This document shows, piece after piece, positions 16,936 through 23,618 of a stretch of 64,000 nucleotides of DNA. The stretch is from the IMG/VR virus record IMGVR_UViG_3300030107_001040, positions 37,656 to 101,655 of that record, one strand, 5' to 3'. Under the pieces are notes generated by a model. That model was not told the origin of the DNA and searched no databases. It saw nothing but the letters and a program-made list of their open reading frames with translations. The stretch's first letter is position 1. Every line of letters begins with the position of its first letter. A program made the translations under genes and the position numbers. This DNA comes from a virus.

Positions 16936-18054
16936 ATGACGCTTCAGTTGGAAGTTGGGGTATGGTATGTGTTACCAGGAATCCCAAATGTAGAAATAGG
17001 TTTACTACCTACGAAAGAATTTTTAGATCTCCCTGAGTGGATAACTCAGCGTAATACGGAGAACAGACTTAAGAAGAAAGGTGTGATAGATCACCTAAGA
17101 AAAGTATTCCCCACTCATCATATTGTAGCAGTTGGAGAGATAACAGCACAAGATGAATGGGAAGATGGAACGATATATGAGGAAGGATCAAGTTGGAGAC
17201 TTGATGCCAATACAAGAGCGAAGGTGTGGGATAGAGGTTTATCTGATACTACACCAGAAGTAGTACTAGCGATTAAGTATAAAGGTAAAACACTAAAGGA
17301 TCTTAGGAGTATTTACTGGGCGTTTGATAACCCAACAGCAGCAGAGATAGCAGCAGAAGTGGTTACTGGATGTCTTAAGTCTCTTGGCATAGAGTTACAG
17401 ACTAAGAAGTTTCAAGATGGTCAGTTTGTAACAGCACTATCATATACTTGCAAGTATAATGCACCTGAAGTATATGGTGAGAAGGGTTTATGGTCAGAAC
17501 CATCTGACGACTCAGTTACTATAAGTGACTACAAGAGAACTCAGACTCTTCATGCTGTTAGAGATTACTCTGAGACTATCGTGGCAGTTGATGAACTGTT
17601 ATCTAAGACTGGTATCATATCAGACTTTGACCAGACCTTCATCACAGCATTATTTTTGTTTCATAGACAGTACGGTGTCTTTGATGACCACGTGACTGAC
17701 TTATGCTTAAACCTTACAGGCAGATTAAAGGATGAGGATGGCGAGCAGTTATTGATAGCAACTGCCCCTAACGCTGGTGCTAAGTTGAATGCAGCAGGGT
17801 GGATAAAGAGAGAGAACGACAAGACCTACGAGAAGTATGACAAGCAAGTGGTCATCAAAGATCGTGGTAAAATGGATGGATTTGCTCAGGGTGTTCCCTT
17901 CTTCTGCTACTGGTTGACCATAGCATCACAGAATGGATTCAAGCACAGACAAAATCAAGGAGCAAAGGGAGGATATACTAACTGGTTTAATGAGGTCTTT
18001 CTAAAGACCAATAGGAAAGCACTGGTAGAAAAACTAGAAAAACTGGTCAGTTGA
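16936..18054 (+). CDS. Hypothetical protein, possible ParB/Srx-like N-terminal domain
   Basis: 'TQRNT', 'RLDANTR' (degenerate DGxHR) and 'YWAFDN'; SD GAGGA. Confidence 0.5.
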   Translation: MTLQLEVGVWYVLPGIPNVEIGLLPTKEFLDLPEWITQRNTENRLKKKGVIDHLRKVFPTHHIVAVGEITAQDEWEDGTIYEEGSSWRLDANTRAKVWDRGLSDTTPEVVLAIKYKGKTLKDLRSIYWAFDNPTAAEIAAEVVTGCLKSLGIELQTKKFQDGQFVTALSYTCKYNAPEVYGEKGLWSEPSDDSVTISDYKRTQTLHAVRDYSETIVAVDELLSKTGIISDFDQTFITALFLFHRQYGVFDDHVTDLCLNLTGRLKDEDGEQLLIATAPNAGAKLNAAGWIKRENDKTYEKYDKQVVIKDRGKMDGFAQGVPFFCYWLTIASQNGFKHRQNQGAKGGYTNWFNEVFLKTNRKALVEKLEKLVS

Positions 18055-18108
18055 GATAGTGGCACATACTTCCACACAGAATGCTCTGAGTGGTATACCA
18101 TATAAATA
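18044..18108 (+). promoter_or_regulatory. Early promoter (dyad copy 3) overlapping a late promoter
   Basis: TGGTCA-N10-TGGCAC; TACCAT at 18096; TATAAATA at 18101-18108. Confidence 0.6.
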
Positions 18109-18109
18109 T

Positions 18110-18260
18110 GGGAAACAAAGGAGGTTTCTTTCTAGTCTGACAAGTAGGGTTCAATCATTTTGAATACGGAATACCAGCAATGGTACACTTCTTATATGAT
18201 TACTACAAGAAGCAGACACATGACGAAAGAGTAATGCACCGCCCCCTCTTTTTGTTTCTC
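18110..18260 (+). ncRNA. Candidate structured ncRNA 1
   Basis: 15-bp 5'/3' closing stem, an inner stem, three hairpins (one with a GCAA tetraloop) and loop-loop complementarity; no long ORF. Confidence 0.65.
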
Positions 18261-18354
18261 TCACCTTATCACATACGAGGAGATGGATGTGCCTCTCGGT
18301 TCGCAACCGAAGAAAGAACTAACATCCGCTAGCAATTTAAGGAGGTTACACGAG

Positions 18355-18540
18355 TTGAAATTCTTCTCAACCAAAACCCAAATTTATGGGATCAAGAAGG
18401 CACTTAAAGCAGCAGAGAAAGATCCCTTCCTGTATAAGGATGAGGAGTTAATCAAATTGAAAACTTCTCTTCGCAAACTACGTGAAGAAGAAGAACTCAC
18501 CAGACAAGCACAAAATGGAGGATTTGGTTACAATGTCTAA
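18355..18540 (+). CDS. Small coiled-coil hypothetical protein
   Basis: TTG start with SD AAGGAGG; in frame with ORF 18283..18540, which gives an alternative start. Confidence 0.6.
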   Translation: MKFFSTKTQIYGIKKALKAAEKDPFLYKDEELIKLKTSLRKLREEEELTRQAQNGGFGYNV

Positions 18541-18684
18541 ACCCATCAAAGTGGACTACGATTCTCAATTTGACTTATGTCAAGAGCAAGAGGATGAGTG
18601 GGTCTCTGACATCCTAGGAGGTGTCAAATGCTATGTTGATGAGGATGAAGTCAACTGCAAAACTTGGAAACCTGACTATTAACC

Positions 18685-19110
18685 ATGAACTACAACACTT
18701 ACGAAGTTCTATTAGGACGTGACAACGGTTACAACAAAACTGTTCATGTCCATGACTGTATGTACGAGGATGAGGCAAGACTACTTGCTGAATCACAGTA
18801 TGGTCTTTCTGCTTTAAGGGTGTTGTATCAAGGCAGAACTGACCAGCAAAGAACACAGGATGAGTTAGCACCACCATACTATCAACCTAGAGGTTCTCTC
18901 TGGTCAGGTTTAGCAGTTCCTTCAGTATTGCTAGGACTCGTGGGTGTTGTTTTAGTTGTGGAATTCTGGTGGGTGTTTCTACTAGGAGCAGGAGGAGTAG
19001 CAGGTTATAAAGCATATCGTGACCGTCCTAACTTAGGTAAAGATACTACTGAGTATGAGGAGGAAGACGAGGAGGAAATGACACTAGATGAGTATTTGAA
19101 CTCAATTTAG
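18685..19110 (+). CDS. Hypothetical membrane protein
   Basis: Hydrophobic stretch 'GLAVPSVLLGLVGVVLVVEFWWVFLLGAGGVAGY' and an acidic tail. Confidence 0.7.
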   Translation: MNYNTYEVLLGRDNGYNKTVHVHDCMYEDEARLLAESQYGLSALRVLYQGRTDQQRTQDELAPPYYQPRGSLWSGLAVPSVLLGLVGVVLVVEFWWVFLLGAGGVAGYKAYRDRPNLGKDTTEYEEEDEEEMTLDEYLNSI

Positions 19111-19238
19111 ATATGTGTAGATTGTCAGTGGATCAGCACCAAAATGCCTAAATAGTAGCAGAGTTATCGGAGGTGTTAAAATGATCCCTACTTCTCTATA
19201 TCATGTTGGCGTAAACAGTCCATTTGGAGATCTAACCT

Positions 19239-19412
19239 ATGCACAATATCCTTTCTCAAAACCGATTAATAGAATGGCAACATTCTAGTAATTACACGAC
19301 ACAACCAAGTGCAGACGATCTTATGGACGATTATTTTGAGTGTCTCATAGATTGCTCAGACAGTTCACATGACGCTTCATGCAGGAGGATATGTTCTGAA
19401 ATGCTACGATAA
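19239..19412 (+). CDS. Small 57-aa protein with CxxxC...CxxxC (not in ORF track)
   Basis: MHNILSQNRLIEW...DDYFECLIDCSDSSHDASCRRICSEMLR; SD GGAG; followed by a terminator. Confidence 0.7.
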   Translation: MHNILSQNRLIEWQHSSNYTTQPSADDLMDDYFECLIDCSDSSHDASCRRICSEMLR

Positions 19413-19425
19413 GTTAAGTTATTTG

Positions 19426-19453
19426 AGACCACCTTGACGGTGGTCTTTTTTTT
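19426..19453 (+). terminator. Rho-independent terminator overlapping a promoter
   Basis: AGACCACC-ttgac-GGTGGTCT followed by a T run. Confidence 0.8.
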
Positions 19454-19462
19454 ATGTACAAT
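19434..19462 (+). promoter_or_regulatory. Sigma70-type promoter
   Basis: TTGACG-17 nt-TACAAT; the -35 lies in the terminator loop. Confidence 0.7.
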
Positions 19463-19489
19463 ATTCCTATACACGCAACAGAAACAACC

Positions 19490-20023
19490 ATGTTTACTGA
19501 GATCTTTGAAGACGGCAGTCTAACCAACTATATCGGCACTAACGTGCAAGACCCTTGGCAGTCCACCCCATTTGAAGGATATGTCCACATGAGTCCTAAG
19601 CAGAAGGGTGAGTTTGGTGAAAGGTTCGTGACTAAGTATTTTGAGTTACAGGGATCAGGAGTCAAGAGGGCAAAGACATCTACAGCAGGACATGATAGAG
19701 TTGTTGACGAGATACTAACAGAGATCAAGTTCTCTCTTGCTACACGTGACAGAAAAGGAGGAGTCAAGAAGGACTCATTCATCATCAACCACGTATCTAA
19801 GGACAAGGACTGGGAGAGATTAGTTTTCTTTGGCATCAACCCAGACAACAGCAGCAGATTGGTCTGGTTCACTAAGGGAGATTTCCTTGCACACCTTGAG
19901 TCAGATGAGTGCTTGTTTGCTCATCAGCAGGGAGGCAAGAGCATAGAGAATGACGACTTCATTTGCACTAAAGTTAAAGATCTGCTAGAATGTGACTGGG
20001 TTAAGTCTGTGGAGGTATGGTAG
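19490..20023 (+). CDS. PD-(D/E)XK nuclease, restriction-endonuclease-like
   Basis: 'KQKGEFGE...GHDRVVDEILTEIKFS' has the E...D...ExK arrangement. Start placed at MFTEIF because the ATG at 19454 overlaps the -10 box. Confidence 0.65.
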   Translation: MFTEIFEDGSLTNYIGTNVQDPWQSTPFEGYVHMSPKQKGEFGERFVTKYFELQGSGVKRAKTSTAGHDRVVDEILTEIKFSLATRDRKGGVKKDSFIINHVSKDKDWERLVFFGINPDNSSRLVWFTKGDFLAHLESDECLFAHQQGGKSIENDDFICTKVKDLLECDWVKSVEVW

Positions 20024-23405: not shown

Positions 23406-23466
23406 GACAGTTTGCAAAGTGAACACATTTTCCCCCACTGTCCCCTTGCTTTGCTATTATATAAAT
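23404..23466 (+). promoter_or_regulatory. Early promoter (dyad copy 6)
   Basis: AGGACA-N10-TGAACA; TGcTATTAT with the hexamer at 23455. Confidence 0.6.
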
Positions 23467-23618
23467 GTTGAGGGATACGTGGTTCTACTGCCCAAAACTC
23501 ATTTGTGGGGTTATCCTACTAAGATATGAGGAGTAGGGGTTCAGGTGTAAGCGATTCCCAGTAGGTAAATTTGGTCTCTTGGGTGAAACCCATTGAAGTT
23601 AGACCCACTCTCTCAACA
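23466..23618 (+). ncRNA. Candidate structured ncRNA 2
   Basis: 10-bp closing stem TGTTGAGGGA/TCTCTCAACA, five inner helices and complementary loops; starts at the predicted TSS. Confidence 0.65.

Follow-up and report, generated by a model that had tools for sequence, protein, structure and literature searches.

Positions 18110-18260 of the 64,000-nucleotide viral sequence analysed here (the window) hold, on the + strand, a conserved structured RNA of T4-like cyanophages (Kyanoviridae), which has been named scaffold A. Its core is a single long irregular hairpin, P1-P1a-P2, with conserved internal loops between the helices, and the tip of P2 is a permissive insertion site for RNA modules. The family name is the blastn placement of the window's neighbours (Syn19, P-SSM2 and others), the window being a fragment of a T4-like cyanomyovirus whose source record comprises 101,655 bases and is about 58% complete. 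The element lies in a non-coding gap of 300 nt (18055-18354), larger than the roughly 230 nt given in a preliminary description of this locus made from the letters alone, in which the quoted sequences were otherwise all correctly located; parts of the gap are also found, without exception as unannotated intergenic DNA, in P-SSM2, P-SSM5 and marine viruses derived from single cells. Pattern scans of IMG/VR gave about 190 related loci, and those searched for covariation totalled about 1.5 Mb; in the fetched loci, a covariance model seeded with 14 short copies identified 71 copies, of which 64 are distinct, and the window copy scores 76.1 bits against covariance model R1. The features of the locus are collected in Table 1.

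Table 1. Features of the scaffold A locus, in window coordinates
Feature	Position	Strand	Description
Upstream gene	stop codon 18052-54		372 aa, PHROG 2615, function not known; adjoins the gap on its 5' side
Upstream dyad	18044-18064	+	TGGTCA-N10-TGGCA; overlaps the upstream gene's stop codon
-10 element	18096-101	+	TACCAT, 8 nt before P1, in register with the TATAAT of homologues
T4-late-like sequence	18101-08	+	TATAAATA; overlaps the TACCAT -10
Helix P1	18110-24 with 18245-60	+	two sub-helices, 92% and 85% paired; double changes at 13 of 15 pairs
Helix P1a	18127-32 with 18225-30	+	TCTTTC/GAAAGA; 96.2% paired; double changes at 5 of 6 pairs
Helix P2	18135-39 with 18213-17	+	GTCTG/CAGAC; 99% paired; double changes at 5 of 5 pairs
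P2 apical region	18140-18212	+	flanks ACA(A) and (A)AGAAG around module I
Module I	18144-18206	+	closing stem GTAG 18144-47/CTAC 18203-06
Module I core	18148-18202	+	AATCAT 18153-58/ATGATT 18196-201; GAA 18162-64/TTC 18189-91; TACCA 18172-76-GCAA-TGGTA 18181-85
Conserved 3' side	18218-18244	+	ACATGAC, P1a 3' strand GAAAGA (18225-30), GTAATGCACCGCCC
Conserved tail	18261-65	+	TCACC, after the P1 3' arm
Module Z	18277-18333	+	GAGGAG; stem GGATGT 18285-90/ACATCC 18322-27; hairpin 18296-18310; palindrome GCTAGC 18328-33
Small downstream ORF	18355-18540	+	61 aa, PHROG 711 (function not known); TTG start at 18355; Shine-Dalgarno AAGGAGG 18339-45

Fold, covariation and the P2 insertion site

The fold energy of the element is unremarkable (MFE of -34.1 kcal/mol with z = -1.16 on the + strand, and z = -1.75 on the - strand) and, folding by itself being unpersuasive, the evidence for an RNA comes from the comparison of relatives. 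Across the 64 distinct homologues, double changes affect 19 of the 26 modelled pairs, against 4-11 in slid controls, and the covariation score is 0.328, against at most 0.10 in those controls; the observed values were reached by none of 500 shuffles. When the full helix set is considered, 24 of 32 pairs show double changes (6-13 when slid) and 88.8-90.2% of the cells are paired. A P2 pair, for instance, is GC in 29 copies and CG in 26, and P1a includes exchanges such as UA 35/CG 27 and AU 28/UA 24/GU 9. Helix P1a, with a pair probability of 0.71-0.74 in ViennaRNA, was detected by inspection of the alignment, where the "linker" that follows P1 is complementary to the "loop" of a small hairpin initially drawn there; since this helix was outside the model with which the alignment was built, the alignment is not biased towards it, and it constitutes independent evidence. 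The original hairpin "P3" (CATGAC/GTAATG), 74.5% paired and with little covariation, was discarded as a helix and is retained as a possible extra contact. Among the pairs, G-U combinations (GU+UG) number 92 and A-C combinations (AC+CA) 22, an excess indicating that the molecule under selection is the RNA of the + strand.

As the helices that covary are P1, P1a and P2, the core forms one rod, and not the multibranch fold with a kissing loop proposed in the preliminary description, whose inner part corresponds to a swappable insert. The two outer pairings of that proposal are borne out over the homologues, 18110-24 with 18245-60 as P1 and GTCTG with CAGAC as P2, with strong covariation in both as well as in P1a, which it had missed. 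Several unpaired blocks are near-invariant in the 64 distinct copies, namely ...CTA before P2, GAC(A) and (A)AGAAG at the P2 tip, ACATGA(C), GTAATGCAC..., and the TCACC tail. Of 78 copies, 29 have nothing inserted at the P2 tip and close it with the 9-nt loop AC-NNN-GAAG; the remaining 49 carry inserts of structured RNA, 13-218 nt in length, that belong to at least 25 unrelated sequence families, and some of these inserts contain further inserts.

The insert of the window, module I, is a self-contained fold known from 12 distinct copies and a further, divergent one; two kinds of scaffold carry it, most copies being located not in scaffold A but in the scaffold type that is also present at window positions 23466-23618; an nhmmer search for divergent copies yielded one convincing variant only, in locus L012. 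The closing stem and the apical hairpin of the module covary, and the latter is again a variable site, occupied by a GCAA or GAAA tetraloop or by long stems, so that the GNRA hairpin TACCA-GCAA-TGGTA recognised earlier is supported (TATCA/TGATA in L002, a GAAA loop in L098, and longer stems elsewhere). The interior is invariant save for one GC-to-AU double change, found in the window copy, where a G-to-A and a C-to-T change jointly preserve a nested GGA/TCC helix. The complementary AATCAT and ATGATT, invariant in 13 of 13 copies, allow two readings, a nested helix and a loop contact: the earlier hairpin 1 (18150-64) plus loop contact, and the nested AATCAT/ATGATT plus GGA/TCC, are both 100% paired (98.6% overall), and thermodynamics favours hairpin 1, with a probability of 0.8 versus 0.15 for the nested alternative. 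The earlier hairpin 3, CTTCTT/AAGAAG, is not conserved and has no counterpart beside module I in other contexts; since it pairs the module with scaffold A's own conserved P2-loop motif AAGAAG, it is a feature of neither element.

Promoter, downstream genes and module Z

A TATAAT-type box precedes P1 at a spacing of exactly 8 nt in 40 of 62 distinct copies, and the register of TACCAT with this box supports the promoter that had been placed directly upstream of the element; the transcript is predicted from this arrangement to start at about 18108-18112. A simple sigma-70 scan gave no -35/-10 pair at the window promoter. An upstream dyad (TGCCA/GACAG...N...TGGCA/TGTCA) is located at the same distance, about 35 nt before the -10, in most scaffold A loci, and probably binds a transcription factor. 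Dyads of the TGCCA-N10-TGGCA type were observed to precede early promoters devoid of a -35. At least seven copies, all of one subgroup, have no TATAAT box and each starts 25-34 nt after the end of the upstream ORF; these boxless copies directly behind ORFs indicate that scaffold A can be either transcript-initial or intercistronic. Long structured leaders occur at only two of the nine early-type promoters of the window, so that a generic need for 5'-end protection does not explain them.

No terminator-like site was found between 17800 and 18700. In the homologues, a start codon follows about 17-29 nt after P1, or else further leader modules and then module Z follow; in the copies without module Z, the start codon stands 9-21 nt past the modelled element. 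The absence of a terminator, together with the nearby start codon or the further leader modules, makes scaffold A read as a leader domain. The next gene belongs to T4-GC66/PHROG 1987 in 32 of 59 copies, and the rest are followed by about 14 other families, an anti-restriction family and a methyltransferase among them; no match to a toxin family was obtained among the neighbouring ORFs. PHROG 1987, absent from the window's record, comprises proteins of about 140 aa with an invariant YHHWDGYP motif (L120, 7144-7566, and 31 other loci), for which neither a Pfam family nor a PDB sequence match was found, and the AlphaFold model (pLDDT 82) returned no Foldseek hit at E <=0.001, no VIA-align Z above 3.0 and no functional clue. 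In S-SSM4 (L195, 1330-1516), scaffold A is followed by a 29-aa, very basic ORF behind GAGGAAG and then by tRNA-Val, the three apparently sharing one transcription unit; the position of this copy before a tiny ORF and a tRNA indicates that the role of the element is not tied to the translation of one gene family.

Module Z, of about 50 nt, is hyperconserved and represented by 111 distinct copies, usually one per genome; window segment 18274-18327 is 100% identical to P-SSM2. Its inner hairpin stem covaries (TCGG/CCGA, TGGG/CCCA, GTGG/CCAC, GTAG/CTAC), and its layout is pseudoknot-capable. A palindrome is present behind it in every case, but its sequence is variable (GCTAGC, CACGTG, CTATAG, CCTAGG, CCATGG, TCTAGA or GCATGC, and once CCTTAGG), and this symmetry without conservation of sequence suggests RNA-RNA self-pairing or a dyad-symmetric DNA site. 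That the hexamer marks gene cassettes was considered and rejected, the same hexamer not being repeated at the distal end of that gene which lies downstream.

Proposed role and alternative explanations

We infer, with about an even chance of being right, that scaffold A is a cis-acting leader or punctuation domain that sets stability or processing, its conserved loops binding a protein. Scaffold A would be transcribed as the first domain of an early, possibly late, transcript running on through module Z into the small gene. How stable the message is, or how it is processed, would depend on the paired 5' end and the long helix of scaffold A, and the conserved loops would bind a host or phage protein; related phages would swap scaffolds and inserts by recombination at shared sequences, leaving one copy of each module per genome. 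The leader reading is favoured because the next gene is predicted to be co-transcribed and its initiation region is adjoined, and because the element also occurs between cistrons. The conserved loops go beyond the needs of a simple stabilising hairpin, which counts against this reading. The RNase III signals of T7 early mRNA are irregular hairpins with asymmetric internal loops, placed at the start of cistrons or between them; scaffold A differs from them in its far more conserved loops, its longer helix and its modularity.

A less likely, though tenable, alternative is that cleavage releases the element from the leader as a stable non-coding RNA of its own, which would bind proteins in trans, as a scaffold or as a decoy against, for example, host defence or a host RNase, with the variable apical modules as its diversifying part. 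The paired ends, the conserved loops and the single copy per genome resemble stable RNA genes, such RNAs are present at some early units only, an anti-restriction family and DNA methyltransferases appear among the neighbouring genes, the insert diversity is extreme, and one copy adjoins a tRNA. Nevertheless, neither a terminator nor a recognisable processing signal follows P1, the next start codon is often close behind it, within about 20-30 nt, and pattern searches of 185,579 cellular genomes gave no host look-alike. The stable phage-encoded RNA of the preliminary description is upheld insofar as the element is conserved, of the + strand, structured and started at a promoter, but not as a discrete 150-nt RNA, since no terminator follows. 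Of the functions suggested there, the decoy for host defence proteins found no specific support, and neither did an RNA antitoxin: the tandem direct repeats and adjacent toxin endoribonuclease gene of type III toxin-antitoxin systems were not found (there is a single copy in the window). A ribozyme likewise finds no backing, since the Rfam search, run to E = 10, matched none of the known self-cleaving classes (hammerhead, hairpin, twister, pistol, hatchet and HDV-like); the AGAA/GAC loop superficially resembles loop A of the hairpin ribozyme, but lacks the G that this ribozyme requires after the cleavage site.

The riboswitch also suggested there, or a protein-responsive leader in which the internal loops form a binding pocket and P1 gates the downstream gene, is distinctly unlikely. 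An aptamer-like core that covaries, whose loops are invariant and whose stem varies in length, would fit such a device, as would the recurrence of T4-GC66/PHROG 1987 behind 32 of 59 copies and the mimicry of the downstream Shine-Dalgarno sequence by the 5' arm of P1 in the window; however, other copies do not keep the SD-like arm, neither a terminator nor a conserved sequestering helix that could serve as expression platform is present, approximately 14 other families and a tRNA are also found in the downstream position, PHROG 1987 is absent from the window's own record, and the T4-GC66 fold gave no functional clue.

An RNA acting from its promoter-proximal position on the transcribing polymerase, so that processive antitermination would allow read-through between cassettes, is very unlikely. 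The put RNAs of HK022 are promoter-proximal, cis-acting stem-loops of early transcripts, and scaffold A, as a stem-loop RNA with conserved bulges in a fixed position directly behind the promoter, is reminiscent of them, terminator hairpins being common between neighbouring cassettes both in the homologous loci and in the window; yet it differs from put in sequence and helix plan and matches no known antiterminator RNA, and at least seven of the sampled copies, the boxless ones, lie directly behind an upstream ORF with no recognisable promoter. Nor does the leader contain a boxA-like element, the cyanobacterial boxA consensus having no match with up to two mismatches in 18055-18355 and matches at chance level window-wide.

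An element that acts at the DNA level only, either an inverted-repeat mini-transposon (MITE) or a PeSL-like recombination cassette, has very little probability. Its ends are indeed inverted repeats, and modules are shuffled and nested between phages, with identical stretches across genomes that are otherwise 68% identical, but it is present in a single copy per genome and always in one orientation relative to promoter and gene, and the 92 G-U against 22 A-C pairs, the three nested covarying helices and the conservation of unpaired loops all speak against it. The PeSL cassettes of T4-type phages (Arbiol et al. 2010; Comeau et al. 2014, PMC4122927) are likewise conserved intergenic exchange points with early promoters, located in variable genome regions; they are short, form many repeats per genome and have not been described for cyanophages, whereas scaffold A is a single copy of 85-300 nt, located 3' of the promoter and with covariation at the RNA level. 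A terminator hairpin is found just before the -10 in many homologous loci, and none in window positions 17800-18700. Finally, that short coding ORFs (18059-18163, 18180-18332 and the ATG at 18283) account for the conservation is scarcely credible: the frames are open and, in P-SSM5, module Z carries three synonymous changes, but inserts of 13-218 nt with lengths that are not multiples of three break the frames, other module Z variants alter residues non-conservatively while keeping the stem, and the frame beyond module Z is not conserved.

Distribution, related RNAs and module exchange

Scaffold A occurs once each in the window's record, in P-SSM2, in P-SSM5 and in three long contigs, and its cultured carriers are P-SSM2, P-SSM5, P-SSM7, S-SSM4 and S-SSM6b. 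Neither its core pattern nor module Z has an exact match in the bacterial and archaeal genomes searched. A likeness of GGGAAACA and of the CTCTCAC tail to cyanobacterial Yfr2/Yfr1 motifs was considered and dropped, the text of the paper giving no confirmation. In agreement with the earlier statement that the RNA belongs to no known family, the Rfam 15 models (4227) gave for 17000-19500, at E up to 10, a best score of 20.8 bits against a cut-off of 48.5 (E = 3), and no match at gathering score in the whole window; a scan of 11 related loci (E up to 0.1) returned nothing for the scaffold A modules, the only hits being manA in L014 and L015. The element is not described in Sullivan 2010 (PMC3037559), in the PeSL papers (PMC4122927, PMC4503421) or in the main text of the viral structured-RNA catalogue (PMC10690425). 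Scaffold A is an uncatalogued, phage-restricted RNA family.

The closest counterparts in the same viruses are manA (RF01745) and wcaG (RF01761), likewise covarying intergenic orphan RNAs of marine cyanomyoviruses (Weinberg et al. 2010, PMC2864571), from which scaffold A differs in having no sequence or structure match to them, in starting at the predicted first base of the transcript and in carrying a hypervariable insertion site with nested modules. The two manA hits (172 bits; L014, 1711-1901, and L015, 4933-5121) lie in loci that both carry module Z before a DUF6267 gene. GOLLD and ROOL (Rfam RF01998 and RF03087) are also phage-borne multi-domain RNAs without known function, sometimes located beside tRNAs; they are much larger (400-800 nt) and have fixed architectures, and scaffold A has no Rfam match.

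Other modules were observed in these loci. A second leader scaffold, TTGAGGGATA...CTCTCTCAAC, lies at window positions 23466-23618, directly behind a TATTAT/TATAAAT promoter; in other phages, copies of this type contain module I, and at L039, L021 and other loci the second scaffold is itself inserted in scaffold A. Another module, GGCAAGGATCTATGG ... CCTGTAAGTCC, is absent from the window and present at L004 (1449-1503), L003 (1397-1450) and L060 (6951-7005), in free-standing form, inside a P2 tip or inside a bare P1; it shows compensatory changes of TCTCTG/CAGAGA to TCTCAA/TTGAGA and of AGGA/TCCT to AGGG/CCCT. It is conceivable, though unlikely, that marine cyanomyoviruses share a kit of nestable RNA modules combined at a few early loci, the RNA itself being the product; its members may be scaffold A, the second scaffold at 23466-23618, module I, the GGCAAGG...GTAAGTCC module and module Z. 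Under such a kit, the RNAs may be protein-capturing decoys or assemblies in the arms race between phage and host, and the variable palindromic hexamer after module Z may mark RNA-RNA homodimerisation.

T4-like cyanophages rank among the ocean's most abundant viruses, and the control of their early gene expression is poorly understood. What is new here is a strongly covarying RNA family absent from Rfam and, since cultured carriers exist, directly testable; its insertion site, tolerated and recursively nested, is an unusual natural instance of an RNA built from modules on the scale of a 5' leader. The near-identical modules in otherwise diverged phages point to an exchange of regulatory RNA between viruses and, if the conserved loops bind a host factor, scaffold A would offer a new handle on how phages take over Prochlorococcus and Synechococcus.
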